From the sequence record OL615013: a stretch of DNA of 64,000 bases; one strand, given 5' to 3'. Positions 6,253 through 26,175 of this stretch are shown here, one piece after another (the first letter of the stretch is position 1; every line of letters begins with the position of its first letter). The notes below the pieces were generated by a model. The model was not told the DNA's origin. It saw only the letters and a program-made list of their open reading frames with translations, and ran no database searches. The position numbers and the translations under genes were made by a program. Origin of the DNA: Shigella phage ChubbyThor.

Positions 6253-6287
6253 TCCCAAACTGGTTTTATAGAAAGAGGAATGAAACT

Positions 6288-7055
6288 ATGGCACCCCGCG
6301 CATATCGTTTCAGTCTCACCGCCCCGCAGATTGAGCAATTGCTCCTTTCTATCAATGATGCTATCAAGTCAGAAGATATCATCTATGATTATGCTGCAGG
6401 TGGGACTGTTGGGCAAGTCGCAGCAGCGTCTGCCGTCAAGAACATGTGGTTGAAGCTCAACGAGATGGTAACAGGCCAAGGCCTCAAAGATGCCATCAAC
6501 GCTGCAGAAGACAGCAACGTGTTCACCGACTATTATAAGTCTTTACTGGATCGCGAAGGCTGGAAATTTATTGGGTCTCCGGCAGATGAACTTGAGCGAG
6601 GCGACATCGACACCGCGAACTTCACGGGTGGTGAGGTCATTCTACTTCAGAAGAACGCTTCAGGCAACCCCGAATTCCAATACTGGAAGCGTACCCCGGT
6701 TGCTGGGGGTGATCCGACCTTCGCCTGGGCTTCGGTCTATGAAGGGAACTCCAACGACTCCAGCATCGAAATCCCGGTGATTGGCACCAGCGTCCTCAAA
6801 GACATTCCCAAGGCTCTCTTCCATATGGTGGAGTTCCGGGTTCATGTCTATGATGAAACGCTGGGGCACTGGCAAGATACAGATGGCAAGGTGGGGTATC
6901 GTGGCGAGGATCTGTTCTACAGCACGTATAACCATGTGCAGACCAAACCGCTCGCCACCATTGACTTCAGTCAAGACACAGATAGCATGACAGTCTCTGT
7001 GACTTCCCTGGAGCCGAATGTCAAATGCCATCTGTCGTTTATCGCTGGTTACTAA
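6288..7055 (+). CDS. hypothetical protein (255 aa), plus-strand gene
   Basis: ATG at 6288 with AGAGGA SD 8 nt upstream; divergent from RNase H gene; track ORF 6129..7055 trimmed to this ATG. Confidence 0.55.
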   Translation: MAPRAYRFSLTAPQIEQLLLSINDAIKSEDIIYDYAAGGTVGQVAAASAVKNMWLKLNEMVTGQGLKDAINAAEDSNVFTDYYKSLLDREGWKFIGSPADELERGDIDTANFTGGEVILLQKNASGNPEFQYWKRTPVAGGDPTFAWASVYEGNSNDSSIEIPVIGTSVLKDIPKALFHMVEFRVHVYDETLGHWQDTDGKVGYRGEDLFYSTYNHVQTKPLATIDFSQDTDSMTVSVTSLEPNVKCHLSFIAGY

Positions 7056-12338: not shown

Positions 12339-13169
12339 TCATTGGAATTCAACTCCATACCTTTCAAGCCATTTATCACAAGTTAAAGGATCCCAACCAT
12401 TATCTAACCTTCGAATAATCGGATTCACTTTAGCCCAGATCCCAGAAGAATTGGAACCGAATACTTCTTTAATGGCTTCTCCCTTGGTCTTACCTTTCAA
12501 TATATGGTAATGTATGTGGGCTGCCCAACACCACCAATTATCCCTATCCGGAGTCCATCTTGGCTTCTCCCAAGGCATTTGCTCTCTGGAGGTTCTGGTA
12601 AAAGCCTCAACACGTTTCCTTTCTTGGTCCGATGTCAATTTATTGGTTAGGCTCTTTCCATAACAGTGATGGTGCTCTCCTCTCTTGACACCTGCATTTC
12701 TCTTCGCAAAGAATTGTTTCAGTTCAGGGTCTTCCTTGCGCTTGTCTTCATAGAATTTCAGCAGTGAATCTGAAGTTGCATCTTTGGCTGCCTGAGACTT
12801 CTTTTTACCATACATCGGGTTGTTAGCCCCTCTGTTCTCTTCGGACAATCTCGCGGCGTATTTCTTACGCATTTTGGCGAAGAGATGTGAATTAACTCTG
12901 TGGCCATTCCTTCTCAGGATCATCAGCGCCTTTACCATACACGTATCCGGCAGCGCCAGAGCGAGACACACGTGAGCAATATAGTGGACGCGGTGTGGTA
13001 ATTTGATTAAATTGTTCTTATCTTTCTTGAATTGAGGAAATAGGGCGGCTGGAAGGATGTGGTGAAATTCTCCTTCCCCGTTGTAATCTGAATAGGCTGA
13101 AAGCAATTTCACATATTTGCCTACAAAGTGCGGTTTGCCACCTATTGTTAAAAGATATTCTCTTTTCAT
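12339..13169 (-). CDS. HNH-type homing endonuclease-like protein
   Basis: N-terminal EFHHILP...NNLIKLPHRVHYIAH (HNH pattern); NPMYGKK DNA-binding repeat like those in the GIY-YIG endonuclease at 32793. Confidence 0.6.
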   Translation of the reverse strand: MKREYLLTIGGKPHFVGKYVKLLSAYSDYNGEGEFHHILPAALFPQFKKDKNNLIKLPHRVHYIAHVCLALALPDTCMVKALMILRRNGHRVNSHLFAKMRKKYAARLSEENRGANNPMYGKKKSQAAKDATSDSLLKFYEDKRKEDPELKQFFAKRNAGVKRGEHHHCYGKSLTNKLTSDQERKRVEAFTRTSREQMPWEKPRWTPDRDNWWCWAAHIHYHILKGKTKGEAIKEVFGSNSSGIWAKVNPIIRRLDNGWDPLTCDKWLERYGVEFQ

Positions 13170-13761: not shown

Positions 13762-14049
13762 TCACACCTCGTCTTCTTCAGGTCCACCATCAATCAGGAT
13801 ACGAGCGGTGTCGAAACCTTCCCCGCCTGTGTTCAACAGCTTGGTCAGATCATCAAGGGTATCGACAGGACCAAGATCAGCCTTGCGCAGAATGAACTCG
13901 AGAAGGCCGTAGAGCGCTGTTTTGTACCGTTCACCGTCGATATCGTTTTTGACTTTCATTAAGTCAATAATCGCGTCTGTCTCCCTGAAACCTGTTTCAA
14001 CTTCACTGCGCACCATAGAGAATAGAGCGAGTTCTTCGTCCCTTTTCAT
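13762..14049 (-). CDS. hypothetical acidic protein (95 aa)
   Basis: ORF track. Confidence 0.4.
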   Translation of the reverse strand: MKRDEELALFSMVRSEVETGFRETDAIIDLMKVKNDIDGERYKTALYGLLEFILRKADLGPVDTLDDLTKLLNTGGEGFDTARILIDGGPEEDEV

Positions 14050-14420
14050 AACGTACCCCCAACAGAGATCATGAACTCTTCTTCAATGGTCGTGACAGGG
14101 CGGCGGTTGCGGGTTTCGATCATGAAGCCCCAGCCGCCGTCGGCGACGTTGCCAAAGGTCTTGACGCCAAAGGTCTTCTTCCCGTTGGAGCAGGCATAGA
14201 AGTCCAAGATGAACGGACTGCCCTGATTGTCGATCCCACGGTTTACACCATCCGCTACACAGCGCTCAATCATCTTCCCGTTCTTATACAGAACGAGGTC
14301 TTGACCATATGCCTTGAAAGCATAAACGCCGTTGGTAGACACTCCGGTGATGACAGGAGGAGCGGAAACAGCAGAGAAGGAAGCGCCCAGCAGGGCAACG
14401 GCGAGGATTAACTTTTTCAT
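14046..14420 (-). CDS. secreted protein (124 aa)
   Basis: Start moved to ATG at 14418-14420; N-terminus MKKLILAVALLGASFSAVSA signal peptide. Confidence 0.55.
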   Translation of the reverse strand: MKKLILAVALLGASFSAVSAPPVITGVSTNGVYAFKAYGQDLVLYKNGKMIERCVADGVNRGIDNQGSPFILDFYACSNGKKTFGVKTFGNVADGGWGFMIETRNRRPVTTIEEEFMISVGGTL

Positions 14421-14444
14421 GATATAGTCTCTTGGTTTCAAATG

Positions 14445-14466
14445 GGCGGGGTAATCATACCCCGCC
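14445..14466 (-). terminator. GC-rich hairpin (repeat copy 1), terminator-like
   Basis: GGCGGGGTA / TACCCCGCC 9-bp stem, loop ATCA; same 20-mer recurs at about 15006. Confidence 0.5.
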
Positions 14467-14472
14467 GTGGGT

Positions 14473-14979
14473 TTATAGGGTAACAAGTGATACGGTAAAA
14501 ACCATCGTCCCGTCTGTTGCCATTTTTCTTGAAACTGGTATGACGCGAGGCTGGCAGAATATCCATTCTTTCTCCATGGACGCCAAGTCCAGCATATCCA
14601 TTTCTGATTCATCGCCTTTGTTCACAAATTTTTCTAGAGAACCATAGACATTAAGCCCCTCCGGGAGTCCGTTTCGATGTTTGTAACAAATGCGGGCAAC
14701 AGCTTTGGTTCCGTACGATTTAGAAAATTGTTTGGCCACATGCTTCAGTTCACTGAAGCTAAGACAAGAATCCCATGTCTGGAACATGTCGCCTCGTTCA
14801 AACAACATCTCTAAACGCGCAACGTCCTCCTTAGGCAGCCCGCGATAAAGTGTGGTCGTCTGTGGCTCGCGTAATTCTTGCACCAGATCACGGACGGCAG
14901 GGGAAACAGTACCGGGGCGCATGATGTGGGACTTATCATGGGCGAGGTAAAATAAATCTTGAATTTGTTGATCGGTCAT
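14473..14979 (-). CDS. hypothetical protein (168 aa)
   Basis: Track start is TTG; moved to ATG at 14977-14979 preceded by ...GCAGGAACTATATC. Confidence 0.5.
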   Translation of the reverse strand: MTDQQIQDLFYLAHDKSHIMRPGTVSPAVRDLVQELREPQTTTLYRGLPKEDVARLEMLFERGDMFQTWDSCLSFSELKHVAKQFSKSYGTKAVARICYKHRNGLPEGLNVYGSLEKFVNKGDESEMDMLDLASMEKEWIFCQPRVIPVSRKMATDGTMVFTVSLVTL

Positions 14980-15005
14980 GATATAGTTCCTGCATTTCAA
15001 ATAGA

Positions 15006-15023
15006 CGGGGTAATCATACCCCG
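15006..15023 (-). terminator. GC-rich hairpin (repeat copy 2), terminator-like
   Basis: CGGGGTA / TACCCCG stem, loop ATCA; near-identical to 14447..14466. Confidence 0.45.
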
Positions 15024-15038
15024 CCCAAAGTTATAGAA

Positions 15039-15278
15039 TTAACTGATGTGCTTCAGAAGAGCGAAGAGGATCGCGGCCTTGGCTTTCACCTTGCCGACGA
15101 CGCCTGTCTCAACATCGACTTCTTCAGCAACCCACTCTTTGCCCTTCTTGCTGATGATAACGTCACGGCGCTGGGCATATACCTCTTTGGTCGCATACAC
15201 ACGACGGAACCCTTTAGCGCGGAGCAAGCCCCAATTGCGATCAATCTCTACTGAAGTTTCGACCATTTTGTTCTTCAT
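15039..15278 (-). CDS. hypothetical basic protein (79 aa)
   Basis: ORF track; ATG at 15276-15278. Confidence 0.4.
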   Translation of the reverse strand: MKNKMVETSVEIDRNWGLLRAKGFRRVYATKEVYAQRRDVIISKKGKEWVAEEVDVETGVVGKVKAKAAILFALLKHIS

Positions 15279-15401
15279 GATATAATCTTACCTTTCAACC
15301 TGGTGAACCCCATCGTTCGCCAGTTATTGAATAATAGGATATTCCTTAGAGGAAGTAAACCCCTAAAAGTAAAAATCCCCAACAAACGTTGGGGACTTCT
15401 G

Positions 15402-15728
15402 TTATTTGCGCAGGGCAACCACGAGTTCAGCGAGTTCGCCCATGGTAGGGTCATCGCCTTTACTACCCAGCCAGCCGTCGTCGATTTCGACCTGAAACTC
15501 TTCTTCGAGGTCCATTACAATTTCGATAGCGTCCAGTTCGTCGCCGCCGAGATCCTTCTTGGTGCGGAGACCAGCCAGCTTGTCCAGGGCATCGTTGATT
15601 ACCACTTCGGCATCGACGATCCCTTTGATGCTACTCTTGTCCTCATCACTGACTTCCAGATTCAGATTGTCAGTGGCGTACTGAGCCAGATGACGCATGA
15701 CTTCAACATATGTTGGTTTACTGCTCAT
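15402..15728 (-). CDS. acyl-carrier-protein-like protein with Ser-to-Glu at the phosphopantetheine site
   Basis: KKDLGGDELDAIEIVMDLEEEFQVEI matches the ACP core LGADSLDTVELVMALEEEFG, with E where the modified Ser normally sits. Confidence 0.55.
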   Translation of the reverse strand: MSSKPTYVEVMRHLAQYATDNLNLEVSDEDKSSIKGIVDAEVVINDALDKLAGLRTKKDLGGDELDAIEIVMDLEEEFQVEIDDGWLGSKGDDPTMGELAELVVALRK

Positions 15729-15747
15729 GCTACTTCTCCCAAAGAAA

Positions 15748-15763
15748 GGCGGGTTGCCCCGCC
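15748..15763 (-). terminator. intrinsic terminator after the vWA gene
   Basis: GGCGGG / CCCGCC stem, loop TTGC; minus-strand RNA continues UUUCUUUGGGAGAAG then ATG of the ACP-like gene. Confidence 0.55.
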
Positions 15764-15770
15764 CGTTGGA

Positions 15771-17972
15771 TTAGATTTTGATCTCTTTCTCTGCCAGTTC
15801 GGCAGTGACCTTGTACTTCACGCCATCCACTTCAACTTCCATGGTTGACTCTTCCAGGTCGAGGTCGGTGAACCAGCCGTGGCCAGCAACGATACCATAC
15901 ACCACTTTAGACAGCGTCTTGTTCAAGGCGCGGACTTCAGTGATGGCCGCCTTGGCAGCAGCGTCGATCCAGTTTTCGATCAGCTGTTTCTGTACGGCTT
16001 CAGGCACGGCAGTGATCGCAGGAGACTTCACGAATGCTTCGTATTCCTTCAGAGCATTGGCGATGAACAAGTCACCCGCATTGAGTTTCTTGTTCTCGGC
16101 AATCTTCTTCTGTACTGCCGCGATGCTAGGCAGAGAAGACGCTCCAGCGATCTTAACGTTCAGCTCACGGCTCATGTAGACATCCGTGGAGTCCTTCAGT
16201 TCGGTCTTCGGTGAGAAGCCGTAATCGCGGATGCCGTAGGAGGACAGGAACTCTGCCGCCTCAGCGCCGTACTGTACTGCCAGGCCTTTGGCGTTACCTT
16301 TGCCAACCAGTTCATCACGGAAGAACTTCAGCACCTTCTGCTTGCCTTTCAGGGCTTCCAGACGGACATTATCCGCAAAGAACTGAGCAGCACTGATGTT
16401 CTTGACCATGGCGCGGTTGACCAGCGGTACGCTTTCCAGGTTCAGGACAAACACTTCCGGACCACCGAACACATGGACGCCCATCTGGCACAGATTGGTT
16501 ACAACTTCAACATCAGCCCTGAACGGCAGAGTCTTCACGTTGATGATGCCGTCTTTGACGATGGTGTAGTTGCGCCACTGGAAAGTATCCAGTTCTTCAG
16601 GCAGACCGAACTTCTTCTGCACGAACTCCGGAATCGCCACAGTGCCGTGCTGGACAGTGCGTACACTGATATTAGGGCGTTCGGAGTTATAGACCAAATC
16701 GCTGATTGGCACAACACCCAGATCGTTGTTAGGTTCGAACGTCGGGTTCCACTCTTCGTGCTCGGCCAGCTTGAGAGCCAGGGCTTTGCGCTCTTCTTTG
16801 GACTCGGCGTTCGCGATCTGTTCTGCCAGCTTGTCTTCGGTATCGTCCAGTTTCTGAGCCGTACCGCGACCGATGCTCTTGTAGGAGAACATAGGATGTT
16901 TGGTAGCAACACACACGCCAGCTTCAGCCAGATACGTCAGCACGTCAACGACGGTCGTCGCATCTTCAGCTGGAACCAGGTCATAATCAATACCGTCAAC
17001 GCCGCGCAGCTGGTCATCAACGATGGCCTGGGTCAGATCAACTTTGATGTTGGAGTAGTCCTGCTTGGTGAAGCAGTTGCTGTACTGTTTGATGAAGCGA
17101 ACGTCACCCGTTTTCTTCAGGGCAGCCCACACCAGGTCTGCGTCCATGATGTGTACGCCGTAGAACGCCAGCACGTATGCCGCCTGGATGTCCGCCAGCG
17201 CATCAAGCTGGTCGATCATGTTAGGATTGACGACCCACAGCTTCGTGACGCTCTCAGGGATGCTCACGTGGCCGATAGGATGGTCTTCATCCGGCTGTAC
17301 CGCCAGCACAGTTGCTACGCCGTTTTCAACGTAGATGGCATGATCATACAGCAACGGAACATCAACAACCACTTTCGGCACCGAGGACTTCAGTACGTTT
17401 TCCAGCTCGGTCTGATATTCGGTCTGGCCTTCGGCGAACACGTGAGTCGCGCCGGAACGTTCAGACATCAGAGCCAGCAGTTCGCGGTTACAGTACCAGC
17501 CGTATTCGATGAATGTGACGTTGTCGAAAGCGGAAGGAAGTTTTTCGGCGGTCTCCAGGATCTCATTGGAGCGCCAGCAGTTGTCATAACCATCGGTCAT
17601 GAACGCCAGGTTGTTGACGTAGCCGGGTTTCTTCAGGTCACGCGCAGTATCCATCGCCAGTTTCAATGGTTCAACAAAACCAGTACAGCCGGATGGTTGT
17701 AGGAAGCGGTCGATCAGTTTGTTCAGCTCGCTCAGGTCAGATGCTGCACTAACCTGACGGCCAGCGAACACAGTACCAAAGTCGCCACGGGATGAGAAAT
17801 ACAGAACACTCACAGTATCTTCCGGTTTCACCAGAGAAGGCAGGTTCTCCTTCAGATGCTTACGGACTTCAGGGAGCGCACGGTACATCGAATAAGAGAT
17901 GTCCACAACGATTACATGGTTGGACGGGGCAGCAGTCGCAACCGCATTCTTAAATTCTAATGATTCAATCAT
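15771..17972 (-). CDS. von Willebrand factor A (vWA) domain protein with about 500-aa uncharacterised C-terminal region
   Basis: Track start is TTG; moved to ATG at 17970-17972 (MIESLEF...); MIDAS-like HVIVVDISYSM in N-terminal domain. Confidence 0.6.
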   Translation of the reverse strand: MIESLEFKNAVATAAPSNHVIVVDISYSMYRALPEVRKHLKENLPSLVKPEDTVSVLYFSSRGDFGTVFAGRQVSAASDLSELNKLIDRFLQPSGCTGFVEPLKLAMDTARDLKKPGYVNNLAFMTDGYDNCWRSNEILETAEKLPSAFDNVTFIEYGWYCNRELLALMSERSGATHVFAEGQTEYQTELENVLKSSVPKVVVDVPLLYDHAIYVENGVATVLAVQPDEDHPIGHVSIPESVTKLWVVNPNMIDQLDALADIQAAYVLAFYGVHIMDADLVWAALKKTGDVRFIKQYSNCFTKQDYSNIKVDLTQAIVDDQLRGVDGIDYDLVPAEDATTVVDVLTYLAEAGVCVATKHPMFSYKSIGRGTAQKLDDTEDKLAEQIANAESKEERKALALKLAEHEEWNPTFEPNNDLGVVPISDLVYNSERPNISVRTVQHGTVAIPEFVQKKFGLPEELDTFQWRNYTIVKDGIINVKTLPFRADVEVVTNLCQMGVHVFGGPEVFVLNLESVPLVNRAMVKNISAAQFFADNVRLEALKGKQKVLKFFRDELVGKGNAKGLAVQYGAEAAEFLSSYGIRDYGFSPKTELKDSTDVYMSRELNVKIAGASSLPSIAAVQKKIAENKKLNAGDLFIANALKEYEAFVKSPAITAVPEAVQKQLIENWIDAAAKAAITEVRALNKTLSKVVYGIVAGHGWFTDLDLEESTMEVEVDGVKYKVTAELAEKEIKI

Positions 17973-18135
17973 CGTTATTGCCTTCTTCAGGGTTGTCTTC
18001 GGCCTCACCTTCCGGCTTGACCAGCATATGTTCAAGGAAATCGCGATTGAGTTCAATCTGACTCATCAGCGTTTCCGATGGGCTAAAGCGGCGGTCGAGG
18101 TTGTCGACGCCCGCACGTTCAAATGGTTTGGCCAT
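17965..18135 (-). CDS. small acidic protein (56 aa)
   Basis: ATG at 18133-18135 next to stop of upstream ORF; 8-nt overlap with vWA start. Confidence 0.35.
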   Translation of the reverse strand: MAKPFERAGVDNLDRRFSPSETLMSQIELNRDFLEHMLVKPEGEAEDNPEEGNNDD

Positions 18136-18136
18136 A

Positions 18137-18496
18137 TCAGCCGCCCTTGACTTCAGTAACGCCAGGGATCGACCGCAGGGCTTGGCGAACATCGGCGACC
18201 TTGTCCTTCTCCACAGTCACCACAATGAACGAGAAGTTCCTTTGTTTACGCCATTTCTTGAAGTGTGAGACAAGCTGTACTTCGTTTTCTTCTGCGCCGC
18301 TTCCCCCTTCTACAGGGACGTAAACGACACCAGATTCAATAACTACATCGGCGTCATCGGGGATATCTGCGTCTACATCTTCGCGATATTCACCATTGAC
18401 TTTGATGCAATGATCGTCGTGCCAAGCGCCGTTCACCCAATATTCATCATCGTGGTAGTACGCATTGAACTCGACACCTTTCATCTTCACAGACAT
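18137..18496 (-). CDS. hypothetical protein (119 aa)
   Basis: ORF track; ATG at 18494-18496. Confidence 0.45.
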   Translation of the reverse strand: MSVKMKGVEFNAYYHDDEYWVNGAWHDDHCIKVNGEYREDVDADIPDDADVVIESGVVYVPVEGGSGAEENEVQLVSHFKKWRKQRNFSFIVVTVEKDKVADVRQALRSIPGVTEVKGG

Positions 18497-18538
18497 CAGG
18501 ATTCCCTCGAAACAGGGGAGTTGCCTCCCCTTCGGTTA

Positions 18539-20203
18539 TCAGATTTGTGATGCCAGTTCTACTACGAGAGGAGCGGCACGGACACGCGCATCTTCCAGAG
18601 TTTGAGTGTTGAAGAACTTGCCGTCACGATACACCAGCTGGTGCTGGTTGTCGGCGTCTTGCACCTGATCAAAGGTGATACCGTCAACCAACACTAGTTT
18701 ACCCTGAGAGTCTTTAATGACTTTAAGGAAACCACGCGCAGACTTTTTAGTCCCGCCTTTGTCGGTCTTCGGCTCTTTGAAGATCTCACGGAATTCGCCG
18801 TTCACCTTACCAGCCGTTGCTTTCACCGCCGTGCCAGTACTGTCACGGGTGTTCATCTGGTAGGTGTAGGAACCGATACCGAACACCACGTTGATGGAAG
18901 CGAAGTTCCGGCCAGCCAGACGACTAAAGATCTGGTCTTCACGTGCCAGGGTGATGGAGTCACCGTAGATCAGACCGATGTGTTCGTCCAACAGGAAGTG
19001 GCCAGTTTCAGTTTGAGTACCGCCAAAGATCTCCCACAGGCGCTGGATAGAGCCGACTGCTTCAGAACGGCTGATGATATTACGGTCGTCTGCCATCAGA
19101 GAGTTGATCGTGCCTTCGCCTGTGATCAGGTGATAGGTGTTCGTCTCTTCGATGTGAATGACTTCAGTGCTGCTAGACACGCCGCTGATGTTCAGCGTGG
19201 CGCGGTCTTTGAACCCCTCAATGCGGTAGCCGCCGACGATATGAACTGGGTCGCCCGAGTCAGGGCGGATCACGACTTTACCGTTACGCGCCATGATAAT
19301 GTCTTTCAGGCGAGGGAGATAGTCGTCGATGACCTGCCAGTAATCCCACGCATCAGACACGATGCTGACGATGCCATCAGGATACACGTCCTGCACCAGG
19401 CGGCGGAAGGTTTCGAATTCGCCATCCTTCGTACCCATACACATCACGGCGTGTTCGGTAGCCGCAACAGAACCAGCAACGACATAGTCTTCGTCGATGT
19501 CTGCGCCATAATACTCTTCTACGAAGTCCAGGGCAGGGTTGGTATCGGTGCCTTTGAAGAACACCAGATGACCGGAACCGGAAGACGCCGCGTCATGCCA
19601 TCCACTCATGCCACGGAAGGAGAAGTCGTGGCCTTGGTAGTCGATGAACCAATGGTCCGGCGACACGCCTGTAGCGAGGGCAGCTTTCACCATCAGTGCC
19701 TTGTAATGCAGGGCGATGGTGGCGTTCGTCATCGGCTTCCAGATCTCAGAGCTGAACACAGTCTCCAGATAGTTGGTCAGCCAGTAGAACTCCGGCAGGG
19801 TGTTGAACATCACATACACCGGAACGCCATATGGGCACATGGTGCCTTCAGGCAGAGCACGGACTTCGATAGGCAGGTAGCCGAGGTCATGCAGGGCTTC
19901 AATATGCTCTGTGCCGACGCGGCCTGGACCCAGGACTTTGTTCATGCGACGGGCATACTTCTTCAACACCTTGGCCTTTGGGCGCTGGAAGAATGCTTCG
20001 TCAAACAGTTCGTGGAACCAGGTCATGAAGCCCTGGATGCCCCAGACCACCACGCCGTTCTTCGGCAGGTGAGAGTTGAACAGTTTGTTGGAGCGCGGAG
20101 TTCCGTTGGAGAACACCAGCTCGCTGCCTTCAGGGAACTGATAGATGTGCCCTGATTTGTAGAAGTCGATTGCATGGATTGGGTCTAAGTGGCGCATGCT
20201 CAT
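18539..20203 (-). CDS. nicotinamide phosphoribosyltransferase family protein (NadV/Namat-like)
   Basis: NAMPT-like motifs DFSFRGMSG, VSDAWD, RPDSGDP, GLIYGDSIT; 4-nt overlap with upstream PRPP-synthetase-like gene. Confidence 0.8.
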   Translation of the reverse strand: MSMRHLDPIHAIDFYKSGHIYQFPEGSELVFSNGTPRSNKLFNSHLPKNGVVVWGIQGFMTWFHELFDEAFFQRPKAKVLKKYARRMNKVLGPGRVGTEHIEALHDLGYLPIEVRALPEGTMCPYGVPVYVMFNTLPEFYWLTNYLETVFSSEIWKPMTNATIALHYKALMVKAALATGVSPDHWFIDYQGHDFSFRGMSGWHDAASSGSGHLVFFKGTDTNPALDFVEEYYGADIDEDYVVAGSVAATEHAVMCMGTKDGEFETFRRLVQDVYPDGIVSIVSDAWDYWQVIDDYLPRLKDIIMARNGKVVIRPDSGDPVHIVGGYRIEGFKDRATLNISGVSSSTEVIHIEETNTYHLITGEGTINSLMADDRNIISRSEAVGSIQRLWEIFGGTQTETGHFLLDEHIGLIYGDSITLAREDQIFSRLAGRNFASINVVFGIGSYTYQMNTRDSTGTAVKATAGKVNGEFREIFKEPKTDKGGTKKSARGFLKVIKDSQGKLVLVDGITFDQVQDADNQHQLVYRDGKFFNTQTLEDARVRAAPLVVELASQI

Positions 20204-21054
20204 TTTACACGTCCTGTATTTTCAGTTTTGAAAGGAAGACCGTCGGCGGTGATATTCTCCCACCAGACAGTGTCGGCATACACAGCATCGTAAATCCCGT
20301 CGAAAACAGAGAGACCTTTGCTGAAGATGCCATGGGTAACGAAGAGCGTCATGTGTTTGGGCTTGTGCTTCTGAAGCTCTTTGCCTAACTCAACGAACGT
20401 GCGCCCACCGTCGCAGATATCATCAACCACAACCAGATAGCGGTCTTTGATCAGTTCAGGGTTTGTAATGCTCACCCCAATGATCTCACCAGTCTTGGTG
20501 TCACGGTTCTTGTGTCCGTAGACAACAGGAACACCATCCAGAGACAGGCTGAGGGCTTCGGTCTTCTTCGCCGCGCCACCGTCAGGGGCTACCAACACAG
20601 CATTGTTCCCACGGATGAACCAGCCCAGATACTGACGCACGATGTAATCTTGCGGGACAACATGGACGTTGTTGATCAGAGAAGTCACAACATGGCTGTG
20701 AGGGTCTTTGATCGCCACGCGGTCAAAGTTCATGCTATTGATGAACTCAGCCGCCCACTTCACAGACAGAGGCTCGCCGAAGTCGCAATGGCGGTCCTGG
20801 CGAGCATACGGGAAGTAAGGGATATACGCATGGAATGTCGTCAGACGATCCACGTTGCCCAGGCCACGCACGGCGTTTACCAGAAGCGCCAGCTCAATGA
20901 AGTCGGCTGATGATTTGATGTGAGCATCAATCACCACGTTCTGGACGTGACCGACAGGGATGCCAGCCTTTTGGATCTTGATATGTTCCTCACCACCTGG
21001 GAAGGTGAAGTGCTTGTAGAACACATCTTGGTCGTTCAATTTCAAACGAAACAT
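20200..21054 (-). CDS. ribose-phosphate pyrophosphokinase family protein (Prs/Adps-like)
   Basis: PRPP-binding motif VVVDDICDGGRTF and VLVAPDGGAAKK; size typical for Prs family. Confidence 0.8.
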   Translation of the reverse strand: MFRLKLNDQDVFYKHFTFPGGEEHIKIQKAGIPVGHVQNVVIDAHIKSSADFIELALLVNAVRGLGNVDRLTTFHAYIPYFPYARQDRHCDFGEPLSVKWAAEFINSMNFDRVAIKDPHSHVVTSLINNVHVVPQDYIVRQYLGWFIRGNNAVLVAPDGGAAKKTEALSLSLDGVPVVYGHKNRDTKTGEIIGVSITNPELIKDRYLVVVDDICDGGRTFVELGKELQKHKPKHMTLFVTHGIFSKGLSVFDGIYDAVYADTVWWENITADGLPFKTENTGRVK

Positions 21055-21164: not shown

Positions 21165-21959
21165 TTATTTGTAGGAATCGACGATGGCCTTGAACAGCGC
21201 GTCCTTCTGGTCGGTTGGGATATAATCCGCCGGAGCCAGCAAGAGCCGCCTGATGTCTTCACAGCAGCCTTTCTGCTCTTCGGCGCTCATCTTATCCCAA
21301 GTGGTGGCATTAAAGTAGATCCCACCCTTGTAAGCCGCCGTGCAAGTCTTGGCCAGGCGAACAACGAGTTCTGAATACAGTTCATCAGGCCGCATGTGTG
21401 AACGCAAATATGTTTCCACTCTGGCCTGGACTTTGCTGTTGTGTTGGTCATTGTGAAGTTCGTTGTCGGTATGAATAAATTCAGCACCGAATCCGCGACT
21501 TGGGTCTCGTGGATGATGGAACACGAAAGACTGGCTATGACCTTTCAAGAATTCCATCCCAGCCATATGATTTATCTTCCCCCTTTCGGAGATGTACTGC
21601 AAGATATCTATCTTCGCATCGGCGGTGGCCGCCTCCAACATCTGCTTCTCCACGACGGCGCGGTAGGCTTCCAGTTCCCACAACTGGGAGAAAGTCTTGT
21701 CATAGGCCAGCTTCTTACCCAACTCTTCATCAAAGTTGGCAGGGTCGATGGAAGTAGAGCTATTCTTGCCCCAGACGACAAAGCCGTTGTCCATCTTGAA
21801 ATGGCAGGTGATGACACGATGACCGCCGACTTCACGGTCTTCATAGATGACTTCAGCAATGTGGGACTTCAGGAGGTCTGGAGACAGCTTCAGACCTTCG
21901 CGAACAGATTTACCCTTCAGCTCAACACCTTTGGGTTCATTACGATTGATGGTTGCCAT
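21165..21959 (-). CDS. hypothetical protein (264 aa)
   Basis: Track start is TTG; moved to ATG at 21957-21959 (MATINRNEPKG...). Confidence 0.45.
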   Translation of the reverse strand: MATINRNEPKGVELKGKSVREGLKLSPDLLKSHIAEVIYEDREVGGHRVITCHFKMDNGFVVWGKNSSTSIDPANFDEELGKKLAYDKTFSQLWELEAYRAVVEKQMLEAATADAKIDILQYISERGKINHMAGMEFLKGHSQSFVFHHPRDPSRGFGAEFIHTDNELHNDQHNSKVQARVETYLRSHMRPDELYSELVVRLAKTCTAAYKGGIYFNATTWDKMSAEEQKGCCEDIRRLLLAPADYIPTDQKDALFKAIVDSYK

Positions 21960-22341
21960 TCTGTGTTTCCCGTAATTGGTTGCATACAACAACTACTTTA
22001 CGGCACATGTCGATATCGAACAAGCCGATATGGCAATCACGCTTCTTGATCCCCAGCTTATGCGCCAGCCAACTGTAAGCGTCGCTCCTGCTCCTCTCTC
22101 CGCTTTTCCACAATGGGTCAAACGATCTATGGGCTTTTCGCTTCTCGGCACGGAGAGCGGCATTCGCCATCCTTCCCAGAGGTTGTCTGCCGTCGCCATG
22201 GGCATGGCAACCGACACGAGCGTCACATGGAGTGCATACCCAGAACTTCAGATTGCGGAGGTCAGGGCGATGAGGGTGGAGGACGTCACCACCGACGAAT
22301 TCGGCTGGGTGGCCGCAGTAATCACAGATGACAGGTTTCAT
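21940..22341 (-). CDS. zinc-ribbon phage protein
   Basis: CDYCGHPAEF...FWVCTPCDARVGCH four-Cys/His pattern; start moved to ATG at 22339-22341 just after terminator hairpin. Confidence 0.5.
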   Translation of the reverse strand: MKPVICDYCGHPAEFVGGDVLHPHRPDLRNLKFWVCTPCDARVGCHAHGDGRQPLGRMANAALRAEKRKAHRSFDPLWKSGERSRSDAYSWLAHKLGIKKRDCHIGLFDIDMCRKVVVVCNQLRETQNGNHQS

Positions 22342-22817: not shown

Positions 22818-24836
22818 TTAGAACACAACTTTCACAGTGCGGTTGAACGAGCCGCTCACCTTCACGAACACGTGGTTGCGTTGGGTGGTAGAGAAGCCCA
22901 GACCGGACAGCTGCTCAGTGCTTGGCTGTACTTTAATCTTACCACCTAACATTTCAAAAACCTTGCGGTGTTTATCAAGTTCCGGCTTCAGATATTCGTT
23001 GTAGAAGCCACGGGTGCCGACAGGGTTAGCACAACCTTCCAGGATGAAGAACACGTGCTTGTTGCCCGTCTGCTCGCCGTCCCAATGGTTTGGTGAGTTC
23101 AGAACCAGCTGTACCTTCTGGAAGACGGAGGTCTTGATGCCCCAGATTTCCTGAGAGCGAGCGTCGTCTTTCAGGGTAGAACTGATGTCGACCACCTGAC
23201 CAGCGCGTACCTGAACCACAACAGCCAACGTGCGGTCTTTGTTTCCCAGACCAGGATGCGAGAAGCGCTTGGTCTGGCCTTTGTATTCAACTTCGATTTC
23301 GAAGCCCACATCGCAGGTTTCGCGCTTGCTGTAGTTGGTGACATAGAACTCATAGTTCCCGTCACGCAGCTTGCATTCATCGCTGAAGAAGATGTTCTCC
23401 ACCGGACGGCGGTTCGGGTCAATACCGTCCATACCGTTCATGTCGATGTCCAGGGTTGCACCAGTTGCCGAACGACGGTTGTTGAAATACACGTGGTTGT
23501 GAAGAGGATCGTTCAGGCTCAGATCCAGGTCGTCGTTGTTATGCCAAGCCAGCGACACACGGAGGAAGCTGTCGACGTTGCCGCCTGCGGTCTTCACGCG
23601 CTCTTTGATGGAGTCGGCCACTTCACCGTTGTATGACCAGCTGAAGCCGTTGTTCCACTTGAACAGGTTAGGAGCACCTGCCGTAGCCGGAGCGATCAGG
23701 GACATCAGGTTGCCAGTGTGAGAGTTTTCAACCAGCACTTCCAGGGAATGCGCCTTTGGCAACACGTTGGTCAGGAAGTCGTCGATGGTGATCTCTTCAA
23801 CCTTGTCCAGGGACTTGGTCGGAGTCTTCACTTCAGACGCCAGCTGAGCAAACGGGTCCATCTTCTTCTGCGCTGCCAGGTCGGCGAACAGAACGTTGTT
23901 GATGGTCAGATCGTCATACACGGCATAACGGCGACCCAGTGAATCGGTCAGACCCAGCGCTTCGACTTCTTTCTGCGCGTTTTCAATCATGGACTTCGTG
24001 ACCAGCGCGGTTGGGCGCTTGTAGTTCGTCGGAGCGACTTTGGCTTCAAAGGACTTCACGGCGGTTTCCAGATCCCGACCTTCATTGAGGTCTACCAACA
24101 GAGAGCCAATCACGGTATTGCGGATGCCGTGAGGGGTGTGTCCGTTTGCACGGTAGCCAGTACGCCAAGCCCACAGAGCGCGTTTCTCTTCTGCAGTTTG
24201 TTCGTACAGGGTCTTGCTCGTCACGAACGCCTGTACTGCTGCTTTGTGCTCTTCACCACGATACAGAGAATTCTGATCAATCAGTTCCAGAACGATTTCG
24301 GCCGATTCCAGAGACAGTTCACGCAGGCCGCGCTCAAACACTTCAATCGCCTGGCGGATTTCACCCTTCTTAGAAGCGATGACATCAGCCCGCAGAACAT
24401 AGCTGGGCAGCAGGTCGGTGTGGAAGTGGTTGTAGGTGCGGACATTACCGTCTTTCATTTCGTGATTCGACTCAACACCGACTTTCTTGGTATCGTTGAA
24501 GTACACGTCGACGATTGCGTGTTGCTTGACATACGCAGACAGCGCCGCGGCGACAACGTCGTATTCGTTACCCAGCTGAATGTTATCCCAGATAGAGATC
24601 ACGTTCAGGTCGGCGTCGATGGTCACCACACCGCCGATGTTACGGATGAATTGTTTACAGCAGGTGCAGTCGTGCTCGGTGCGCTCACGGTAGAGCGGGT
24701 TGGTGCCAGCAGGGAAAGAAGACAGATACAGATCCCACAGAGCATCTTTATCGATGTTGGTCATGAACAGACCAGTTGCTGACATGGCCAGCACATTATT
24801 GTTTACAGCTACTGCGAAGGGCTTAAATTCTGACAT
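22818..24836 (-). CDS. large hypothetical protein (672 aa)
   Basis: Long ORF with ATG start; no polymerase or other motif recognised. Confidence 0.6.
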   Translation of the reverse strand: MSEFKPFAVAVNNNVLAMSATGLFMTNIDKDALWDLYLSSFPAGTNPLYRERTEHDCTCCKQFIRNIGGVVTIDADLNVISIWDNIQLGNEYDVVAAALSAYVKQHAIVDVYFNDTKKVGVESNHEMKDGNVRTYNHFHTDLLPSYVLRADVIASKKGEIRQAIEVFERGLRELSLESAEIVLELIDQNSLYRGEEHKAAVQAFVTSKTLYEQTAEEKRALWAWRTGYRANGHTPHGIRNTVIGSLLVDLNEGRDLETAVKSFEAKVAPTNYKRPTALVTKSMIENAQKEVEALGLTDSLGRRYAVYDDLTINNVLFADLAAQKKMDPFAQLASEVKTPTKSLDKVEEITIDDFLTNVLPKAHSLEVLVENSHTGNLMSLIAPATAGAPNLFKWNNGFSWSYNGEVADSIKERVKTAGGNVDSFLRVSLAWHNNDDLDLSLNDPLHNHVYFNNRRSATGATLDIDMNGMDGIDPNRRPVENIFFSDECKLRDGNYEFYVTNYSKRETCDVGFEIEVEYKGQTKRFSHPGLGNKDRTLAVVVQVRAGQVVDISSTLKDDARSQEIWGIKTSVFQKVQLVLNSPNHWDGEQTGNKHVFFILEGCANPVGTRGFYNEYLKPELDKHRKVFEMLGGKIKVQPSTEQLSGLGFSTTQRNHVFVKVSGSFNRTVKVVF

Positions 24837-24951: not shown

Positions 24952-26175
24952 TTATTCAGGTTTCTTCAAACGGTCCAGCAAATTGACGGAACCACGTTTG
25001 AGCACGACTTCATCACAGCGCTTTTTGTATTCCCCACCGCCGTCATAGCTGACCTTGCCCCGAGGTTTTTCACCGCGCCCAACCGCCTCAACACAGCGAG
25101 TGTACTTGCTCAGTTCACAGAACATGTTCTCCAGCTGCATGACGTTCATGCATTGGTCTACAGGCTCTTCGGCCGACCAGAATTGCTCGCGAACATACCC
25201 ATATTGGGAGTATACCGCGTCCTGATTATCCCGTAGCCAGAATATGCATTCTTCGTGAGTCATGCCGTCCTTGTTCAGGAACAGCAGATCAATACCTGCG
25301 CGACAGCCCGGTCCGGCGATCGTGAAGTGATTCTCGCTGAACGGATAACCAGGCATGTACGTGAAATCAACCCAGATCTGATAGGCCAGGAATGGACCAA
25401 GCCCTTCAATGTCGTCGTACATGCGCTGGTATACTTCCAGAGGAGTATCAAGACGCAGCAGGTCATGGAAGTAATTTGGGTGCTTGTTGACGAATGCCTT
25501 CAGGGAACGGATAACACGCATCGGCATGTATGGTTCCCATCCCTCGATGGTATATTCACCAGGATTCTCTTCGACCAGCTTCTTGGCGACCTTGTAGTCC
25601 ATCTCGTCCACAATACCCTGGCCAACGCGATACACTTTCACCATCATCCCACCGAAGCGCTGCTCCTTGTGGTTGACAACCAGCTCAGGGAAAGCCAGGC
25701 ATTGCTTCAGGCCGCCTGTGTTGAAGGCATTGGTGAACACCTTGCCGCCGTCGGCCTCGAACTTCTGAAGTCGTTCGCGGGTTGCGTCAAGGTTGATCTT
25801 GGCGAAGTCTTTGATCGTCATCGCGCCGCCGATAGCCTGGATCGGATCCCAGAGGTTGAACATGCGGAACAGAACGCAGTTGAACATCTTGTCTGCCATG
25901 CCCAGAGCATCGTTCTTGACGATGTTATTGATCAGGTTGAGAGACTGCCTGTCGTGCTCTCTCCGGACGTTACAGAACTTGACCTGCCGTAGTATAGGAT
26001 TATTGGTCCAAGGGGCAGGAAGACGCTGGACGTCCTTCTTGACGTGGATCTTATAGCGCTCGCTCATCCATTCGTAAGACAGGCGGGTATGGGTCGGACT
26101 GAGAACCGGTTTGGCCGACTTTATCTTTTCTTCACGGACACCGCAGTACGGGACGTCCAGGGCTTTATCTTTCAT
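24952..26175 (-). CDS. hypothetical protein (407 aa)
   Basis: Long ORF with ATG start; no motif recognised. Confidence 0.6.
   Translation of the reverse strand: MKDKALDVPYCGVREEKIKSAKPVLSPTHTRLSYEWMSERYKIHVKKDVQRLPAPWTNNPILRQVKFCNVRREHDRQSLNLINNIVKNDALGMADKMFNCVLFRMFNLWDPIQAIGGAMTIKDFAKINLDATRERLQKFEADGGKVFTNAFNTGGLKQCLAFPELVVNHKEQRFGGMMVKVYRVGQGIVDEMDYKVAKKLVEENPGEYTIEGWEPYMPMRVIRSLKAFVNKHPNYFHDLLRLDTPLEVYQRMYDDIEGLGPFLAYQIWVDFTYMPGYPFSENHFTIAGPGCRAGIDLLFLNKDGMTHEECIFWLRDNQDAVYSQYGYVREQFWSAEEPVDQCMNVMQLENMFCELSKYTRCVEAVGRGEKPRGKVSYDGGGEYKKRCDEVVLKRGSVNLLDRLKKPE

Follow-up and report, generated by a model that had tools for sequence, protein, structure and literature searches.

An acyl carrier protein homologue without its phosphopantetheine serine, conserved in Shigella phage ChubbyThor and related Ackermannviridae phages

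In acyl carrier proteins (ACPs), a conserved Ser bears the phosphopantetheine arm on its hydroxyl, and the type II ACP of Escherichia coli, AcpP, is a highly connected hub with links to the synthesis of fatty acids and lipid A, to MukBEF and SpoT, and to Fe-S biogenesis. Small proteins with the ACP fold are also encoded by phages, including Caulobacter phage phiCbK, Olleya phage Harreka_1 and many IMG/VR contigs, and these ordinary phage ACPs generally keep the Ser: among the non-Ackermannviridae IMG/VR loci that we recovered, it was present in 62 of 68 (57 of the DSLD type and 5 DSLN), the other six having Glu (4) or Ala (2). Here we describe an ACP-like gene in a 64,000-nucleotide stretch, hereafter the window, from Shigella phage ChubbyThor (OL615013), a member of Ackermannviridae, which is the only clade found here with the loss of this Ser fixed. 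The gene and its parts are as follows.

15402..15728, minus strand: coding sequence of the ACP-like protein (pseudo-ACP), from the list of open reading frames (ORFs); ATG start, 108 aa, of which residues 1-28 are an extra, family-specific N-terminal helix and residues 29-107 the ACP domain
15495..15554, minus strand: recognition helix II and its loop, residues 59-78, DLGGDELDAIEIVMDLEEEF, placed by alignments
15537..15539, minus strand: codon 64, GAA (TTC on the plus strand), encoding the Glu that begins helix II in the place taken by Ser36 in E. coli AcpP

Comparisons at the level of sequences and profiles indicate that this gene encodes a genuine ACP homologue without the phosphopantetheine attachment Ser. 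A preliminary description had claimed a 108-aa acidic protein at 15402-15728, ACP-like but with Glu in place of the Ser, and had quoted its string LGGDELDAIEIVMDLEEEF (residues 60-78); the ORF is real, begins with ATG, and has a product of 11,880 Da (about 11,749 Da once Met1 is removed) with a pI of 4.18, close to the 4.05 of E. coli AcpP. With Pfam PF00550 the protein scored 25.0 bits, above the gathering cut-off of 20.8, and a phmmer search of Protein Data Bank (PDB) chains returned ACPs almost exclusively (best E 1.4e-5), with DLGGDELDAIEIVMDLEEEF aligned to solved ACPs without gaps (DLGGDELD on DLGADSLD). When the profile of the 28-member family was compared by hhalign with 25 Ser-bearing canonical ACPs (probability 99.3%, E 7e-21), residues 29-107 fell on AcpP residues 2-77 and Glu64 on the invariant Ser, so that the profile alignment proposed earlier as a check for a Ser or Thr at the modification site gave Glu there and upheld the replacement. 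Residues 59-84 are identical to E. coli AcpP 31-56 at 17 of 26 positions. PF14573 (PP-binding_2) gave 27.3 bits, below its gathering cut-off of 32, and the NCBIfam ACP models all stayed far under their cut-offs, the best being NF002148 (38.4 vs 71 bits), matched by residues 53-84 only. The phrog_4154 profile (‘acyl carrier protein’, from Ackermannviridae-type phages) covered the whole protein, residues 1-108 on positions 1-108, with an E-value of 6.3e-57, and the protein is 100% identical to gp126 of phage Ag3, annotated there as ‘acyl carrier protein’.

The ACP helical bundle was also obtained by structure prediction, which had been suggested as a further check. An AlphaFold2 (AF2) model built from the family alignment (predicted local distance difference test, pLDDT, 81; predicted template modelling score, pTM, 0.74) has helices at residues 7-21, 28-39, 45-52, 64-78 and 96-106. 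Glu64 opens the helix that matches ACP helix II, in the place of Ser36 in AcpP, and segment 79-95 (DDGWLGSKGDDPT) stands in for helix III. In a Foldseek search of the PDB with this model, about 48 of the 50 top matches were ACPs or carrier domains, with template modelling (TM) scores, normalised to the target, of 0.47-0.68, mostly 0.6-0.68, although the E-values were weak (at least 0.2). A fold search of BFVD returned the ViI orthologue first (TM 0.81-0.83) and other phage ACPs next, the ordinary ones named above giving the best of these matches. Compared with AcpP, the phage protein thus shares whole-domain homology, the helical bundle and a similar acidity, and it retains the D-x-L-D...E...M..EEEF...I.D pattern recognised by ACP partners. 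It differs in having Glu or Asp for Ser throughout the family, in the extra 28-residue N-terminal helix, in a longer loop with a conserved W-x-G...DDPT that replaces helix III, and in its context, where we found neither a phosphopantetheinyl transferase (PPTase) nor acyl-ACP enzymes in the parts that were searched. It therefore resembles an ACP in shape and surface and cannot perform ACP chemistry.

Alignments across the family indicate that the loss of the Ser is a family property and not a single mutation. A search of 5.8 billion proteins gave 28 clusters of the family, the full-length ones down to 58% identity, and all of them carry LGGD[ED]LD, the site residue being Glu in 26 clusters and Asp in the other 2. 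Full-length relatives at 26-48% identity, found by an exhaustive profile search (P0029-P0034, P0036 and P0048), likewise all have Glu or Asp at this position, and an 89-aa version in Miltonvirus KNP4 has the motif NFDELD. In Erwinia phage vB_EamM-Bue1 (MG973030.1), an ACP-like ORF at 6253..6612 on the plus strand has the motif FAMDELD. This ORF sits in a 440-bp stretch without a called gene, right after a gene for a vWA-domain protein, and appears to be a gene overlooked by public annotation.

In the most divergent family alignment, D63, L65, I68, E69 and E75 are invariant, V10, D66, M72, I82, D84 and P94 are nearly invariant, and position 64 varies between Glu and Asp only. Almost all of the invariant or nearly invariant positions lie in or beside helix II, the exceptions being V10 and P94, and the rest of the protein has drifted to about 30% identity; the acidic surface residues of recognition helix II are its best-conserved part. 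The same alignment shows no further Ser, Thr, Cys or Lys that is kept across the family. Pairwise ratios of nonsynonymous to synonymous substitution (dN/dS) were 0.05-0.30 in pairs with unsaturated dS, which argues that purifying selection maintains the gene in all of the Ackermannviridae-type phages examined.

Because the arm attaches to the hydroxyl of the missing Ser, the ACP-like protein cannot become holo-ACP or carry acyl groups. It follows from ACP chemistry that phosphopantetheinylation at the canonical site is impossible and that this protein is not an acyl carrier; the earlier claim to that effect is strengthened by the family-wide Glu or Asp and by the signs of purifying selection. 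In presenting an ACP surface without an arm, the phage protein resembles apo-AcpP, and would do so permanently: apo-AcpP is converted to holo-AcpP by AcpS, whereas the phage protein is not, and the latter bears a fixed negative charge. Its genomic surroundings point the same way. No AcpS homologue was found in the window or, at a tblastn E-value of at most 0.01, in any Ackermannviridae record, and a tblastn search of 50,697 phage records with E. coli AcpS gave nine hits, none of them from Ackermannviridae. A second ACP-like ORF was not found in the window either. Lipid-related genes are absent from the annotations of the Ag3 stretches 1-50 kb and 67-96 kb, as are acyl- or aminoacyl-transfer enzymes among the annotated neighbours of the ACP-like gene in these stretches; instead, the genes nearby encode a vWA protein, a NARP1-type pair for NAD salvage and an ADP-ribosyltransferase. 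A carrier that is modified on another residue, or through the Glu/Asp carboxylate by some unknown enzyme, would be compatible with the preserved fold, and the strict Glu/Asp could in principle mark a modification site, but we consider this extremely improbable given that no PPTase was found in these phages and no acyl- or aminoacyl-transfer enzyme among the annotated neighbours, the lack of any other conserved Ser, Thr, Cys or Lys in the divergent family, and NCBIfam ACP scores far below cut-off (38 vs 71 bits).

The preliminary description had also offered a DNA mimic as a possibility. The protein contains 26 Asp and Glu against 11 Lys and Arg, so that its net charge is near -15, and a small phage protein of pI 4.2 encoded in a host-takeover region might act as a generic polyanion or DNA mimic that blocks some DNA-binding protein of the host, for instance a restriction enzyme, RecBCD, HU or an SMC (structural maintenance of chromosomes) complex; a Gam-like gene adjoins a Ser-less ACP-like gene at phage locus L012. 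However, every ACP is equally acidic, so that charge is uninformative, and nothing specific beyond net charge was seen. Conservation is focused in one helix and not in carboxylates arrayed as in DNA, no known DNA-mimic family was matched, and PADLOC and Pfam returned nothing beyond ACP. A DNA mimic is accordingly quite improbable in our judgement.

The change from Ser to an acidic residue was also observed in bacteria. Exported ACP-like lipoproteins from metagenomes (P0073, P0101, P0103-P0105, P0108, P0120, P0132 and P0140; loci L007, L010 and L011) share LG-x-D-[ED]-L-D within a PF00550-positive domain. In contrast to the phage protein, they are bacterial, have lipoprotein signal peptides with a lipobox ending in Cys and do not share the extra helix at the N-terminus. 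No specific relationship links them to the phage clade, and they look like a so far undescribed family of ACP-fold lipoproteins without a prosthetic group. Among the 203 matched domains that have a residue at the site, it is Glu (50), Asp (19), Ser (127) or another residue (6), counts that are biased and not frequencies, as the search profile favours Glu. Short Ser-less ACP-like genes were also seen in other, unrelated phages at L004 (7079..7375, GADELD) and L012 (6001..6249, GVDDLD), amid genes of nucleotide metabolism and replication (ThyX in one, and ribonucleotide reductase (RNR), Gam-like, ThyA and DHFR in the other) and with no vWA gene nearby.

Two readings of residue 64 can be put forward. 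In the functional one, Glu or Asp would supply a fixed negative charge where holo-ACP has its phosphate, or a ligand for a metal or an Arg. In the structural one, since acidic residues are favoured in the first turns of helices, Glu or Asp would be a natural replacement at the helix start once the Ser is no longer needed. The structural reading gains weight from the exported lipoproteins, because these carry LGxD[ED]LD beyond the reach of coenzyme A (CoA) and PPTases.

The conserved surface acids D66, E69, E75 and D84 are dispensable for folding, from which we infer that the phage protein works solely by binding other proteins, by way of the acidic face of helix II (D63, D66, E69, E75, E76 and D84). 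The pattern of conservation, with helix II kept in the same phages in which the vWA protein is about 72% identical, would fit a small, constrained interface. The earlier idea that the protein mimics holo-ACP and so titrates host partners is plausible, and our favoured, tentative interpretation, to which we give a probability of roughly one in three (about 35%), makes it a decoy of host AcpP. Under this scheme, it would dock on a host protein that recognises helix II of AcpP and needs no acyl arm, the carboxylate at position 64 would replace the negative charge of the Ser-linked phosphate, and the bound partner would be blocked, or locked in one state, during infection; MukB, AcpS, SpoT, IscS and PlsB are candidate targets. 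Unmodified apo-ACP itself can be harmful, as Keating, Carey and Cronan are said to have found in 1995 that it poisons E. coli. Such a decoy would be feasible, because there is a client that does not depend on the arm, the MukB ATPase being stimulated equally by apo- and holo-AcpP (PMC8602292), and because an Arg of MukB touches the phosphate on Ser36 of AcpP in the MukBEF structure (PMC8669397).

A hint that host AcpP can matter in infection comes from a Klebsiella clone that escaped the phage cocktail cp34+mtp5 and carried one non-synonymous point mutation in acpP (PMC10433977), an anecdotal observation. We did not retain it as a link between host acpP and resistance to these phages, for mtp5 is a Slopekvirus, a genus with the vWA gene but without the ACP-like gene, and no Ackermannviridae phage is apparent in that case.

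Several considerations weigh against a decoy of host AcpP. The helix II residues are the consensus of every ACP, and any ACP-type interface, even one with a phage protein, could explain their conservation. Helix III is replaced by the loop G-W-L-G-x-x-G-D-D-P-T, unlike AcpP, and in the phmmer comparison similarity to E. coli AcpP was not above that to Bacillus or mitochondrial ACPs; because the loop differs and the similarity is not biased to the host, there is no sign of specific mimicry of host AcpP. Glu or Asp may have been fixed for stability of the helix N-terminus and not for phosphate mimicry, and the same Ser-to-Glu/Asp change recurs in the exported bacterial lipoproteins, which cannot meet AcpP clients. 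In addition, the conserved place of the gene right after a vWA gene with an intact metal-ion-dependent adhesion site (MIDAS) points to a phage partner.

A more specific form of the decoy idea concerns MukBEF, an SMC complex that needs AcpP for its ATPase and is a known phage target. The phage protein would then be a permanent, unmodifiable stand-in for AcpP that seizes or disables an arm-independent client, with MukBEF as the candidate of greatest interest and AcpS or SpoT signalling as the others. We regard this version as unlikely; if true, it would be the first viral pseudo-ACP acting as a host-factor mimic.

The genomic context bears on a possible phage partner. By megablast of positions 14000-19000, the window belongs to an Ackermannviridae phage (Agtrevirus): 275 phage records were matched, and the top ones, every one from Ackermannviridae, were those of Shigella phages MK-13 and Ag3 (at 95-97% identity) and of Salmonella phage SKML-39, with Ag3 classed as Agtrevirus in its record annotation. 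All genes around the ACP-like ORF are on the minus strand, and they are given here in the order of transcription.

24952..26175, minus strand: 5-hydroxymethyldeoxyuridine (5-hmdU) DNA kinase (PF18723, E 4e-82)
22818..24836, minus strand: 672-aa DUF8224 protein (phrog_1735; the DUF8224 label comes from relatives)
after the 672-aa protein gene and before the gp49_66 gene, minus strand: DUF3268 zinc-finger protein
21165..21992, minus strand: gp49_66/RyR-type protein
20200..21054, minus strand: Prs-like protein
18539..20203, minus strand: NAMPT-like protein
between the NAMPT-like and vWA genes, minus strand: gene of a 119-aa protein
15771..17972, minus strand: vWA-domain protein, 733 aa
between the ACP-like and ADP-ribosyltransferase genes, minus strand: gene of a 79-aa protein
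14473..15000, minus strand: Alt/Mod-like ADP-ribosyltransferase, 175 aa, similar to the C-terminal portion of the PHROG for the Alt-type ADP-ribosylase of RNA polymerase

The vWA protein immediately upstream is a candidate partner. The mechanical call began its ORF at a TTG (18056) that precedes the ATG at 17972 by 28 codons, and the ATG is the likely true start because it fits both the Ag3 annotation and the length of homologues (about 733 aa). The protein matches Pfam VWA (E 5e-6) and phrog_2426, and its MIDAS motif is intact (D24-x-S26-x-S28 ... T97 ... D127), with residues that are invariant or at least 90% conserved in 46 vWA homologues down to 27% identity. In a Foldseek search, its AF2 model (pLDDT 86.6) resembled vWA proteins with attached beta-sandwich domains, namely 4fx5, ArnB, Sec23/24-like proteins and ITIH1. 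Glu or Asp ligands complete the MIDAS of integrin I-domains, anthrax-toxin receptors and Rea1/midasin, as exemplified by Glu34 of ICAM-1 with alphaL and by the Glu of Rsa4/Ytm1 with Rea1. By analogy, the ACP-like protein might be a ligand or accessory subunit of the phage vWA protein, in which Glu64, or the cluster D59/D63/E64/D66, would complete the metal coordination of the MIDAS and thereby regulate or target the vWA protein.

Gene order and motif conservation are consistent with such a ligand. In the window, in Ag3, at loci L002, L003, L006 and L008 and in Bue1 (L091), the ACP-like gene comes directly after the vWA gene, and in Miltonvirus the vWA gene lies about 0.9 kb upstream; the distance is 39-52 nt, on the same strand, in the window, in Ag3 and in four divergent metagenomic relatives. 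The DxSxS...T...D residues are conserved in the 46 vWA homologues, and the site residue of the ACP-like family, limited to Glu or Asp like MIDAS ligands, is an exposed residue on a small domain encoded beside the intact-MIDAS vWA gene. Yet the resemblance to MIDAS ligands is one of principle, and the phage vWA family occurs elsewhere without the ACP-like gene: it was found in 503 phage records, vs 271 for the ACP-like protein, and no ACP-like ORF lies within 3-4 kb of the vWA gene in Slopekvirus KP15, Bacillus phage Internexus, Shewanella phage Thanatos-1 or a 135-kb metagenomic phage (L093). Because these four have the vWA gene with no such ORF nearby, the vWA protein does not need the ACP-like protein. 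Moreover, the whole region is syntenic in Ackermannviridae, which makes adjacency weak evidence, the two proteins have evolved at very different rates (about 72% identity for vWA vs 32-48% for the ACP-like protein in the same divergent phages), and the Ser-less phage genes at L004 and L012 have no vWA neighbour. We consider a role as vWA ligand, the main rival of the decoy, unlikely. An association with vWA as a general rule for Ser-less ACP-like genes was rejected, as no vWA gene is near those at L004, L010, L012 or on the P0073 contig; among the bacterial cases, one Ser-less ACP-like gene (L007) has a vWA gene of the YfbK type nearby.

The signals flanking the ACP-like gene bear on whether the two genes form one transcription unit.

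15737..15764, minus strand: GC-rich hairpin GGGCGGGGCAACCCGCC (stem-loop 15764..15747) followed by TTCTTT, from a terminator scan
15733..15740, minus strand: Shine-Dalgarno sequence GGGAGAAG with GGGAG, the GGAG ending 7 nt before the ATG
15369..15395, minus strand: hairpin TCCCCAAC-GTTT-GTTGGGGA followed by TTTTT, starting 7 nt past the stop of the ACP-like gene

The preliminary description had placed a terminator and a Shine-Dalgarno sequence of its own before the ACP-like ORF, and the upstream hairpin with its T-run and the GGGAG are seen at the consensus level. This upstream hairpin may be terminator-like or RNA-stabilising, and read-through of it is likely because its T-run is short. The downstream hairpin, for which the scan gave a stem on the plus strand while the T-run on the minus strand was read directly from the sequence, looks like an intrinsic terminator that closes the vWA/ACP-like transcription unit. 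In the window, 42 nt separate the vWA stop from the ACP-like ATG, and no sigma-70-like site was found on the minus strand between these genes. The simplest reading would be that the two genes are co-transcribed with partial attenuation; that the only intergenic terminator-like signal has a weak T-run, and that the unit appears to end past the ACP-like gene, are further points for a vWA ligand. The vWA TAA and the ACP-like ATG are in one frame, 14 codons apart (15729..15773, minus strand). A fusion by programmed stop-codon read-through was discarded, since, by the gene coordinates, the frame is shared in L002 and L003 and not in L006 or L008.

The remaining neighbours might supply other phage partners. 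The 5-hmdU DNA kinase and the 672-aa protein look like the thymidine-hypermodification module of Vi1-like phages. The NAMPT-like and Prs-like genes share a 4-nt overlap, and their products would correspond to a NARP1-type NAD+ reconstitution pair (Namat and Adps); with the gp49_66 gene, this pair resembles an island of anti-defence genes, situated shortly upstream of vWA and the ACP-like gene. Relatives of gp49_66 in L002, L008 and L091 additionally bear an RyR domain, a type recently linked to the degradation of immune signals based on ADP-ribose (ADPR) (PMC13232231). Downstream, the ADP-ribosyltransferase has a counterpart in MK-13 and is absent from the corresponding place in Ag3; its relative in L003 has PF26816 Mod_ADP_RT. 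T4-type Alt/Mod ADP-ribosyltransferases are Arg-specific, and for this reason, and because the gene is missing at the Ag3 locus, Glu64 was rejected as an ADP-ribosylation site of the nearby enzyme. A NUMOD3/HNH homing endonuclease ORF (phrog_655; 12339..13169, minus strand) is inserted amid small early genes.

In such surroundings, the ACP fold might serve as an acidic docking domain, with the protein being an adaptor or regulatory subunit for another phage protein involved in NAD reconstitution, ADP-ribosylation or thymidine hypermodification. This early or middle region is rich in host-takeover and anti-defence genes (NARP1-type, RyR/gp49_66, Alt/Mod-like and 5-hmdU DNA kinase), other Ser-less phage ACP-like genes also lie amid nucleotide-metabolism genes, and BFVD gave a weak match to an 81-aa protein from PhiW-14, a hypermodifying phage (TM 0.72, target-normalised; E 2.3). 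Nevertheless, no specific partner is indicated, the NARP1 genes are not beside the ACP-like gene in L006 or Bue1, the ADP-ribosyltransferase is missing from its place in Ag3, and no co-occurrence beyond general synteny was seen, so that an adaptor of this kind seems to us a lesser possibility, on the unlikely side.

The gene family itself is known and widely annotated as acyl carrier protein; what appears to be new is the fixed and apparently selected loss of the Ser. Full-text literature searches on Ser-less and phage ACPs found no description of the missing Ser or of a function for the family, and a virion proteome in which the Kuttervirus orthologue was represented by a single peptide is uninformative (PMC10892097). 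As the protein cannot hold the prosthetic group, the label ‘acyl carrier protein’ is chemically wrong in hundreds of deposited phage genomes, where the gene is filed as an auxiliary metabolic gene; the mislabelled genomes include those of many phages of Salmonella, E. coli O157, Shigella, Klebsiella and Dickeya. The recurrence of the Ser-to-acid change in exported bacterial lipoproteins suggests a wider theme, so far overlooked, of ACP-fold binding domains that lack the arm. For the phages themselves, the pseudo-ACP is possibly a new class of host-takeover or anti-defence protein, and a conserved ACP without an arm would be a ready probe for which of the contacts of AcpP matter in infection.

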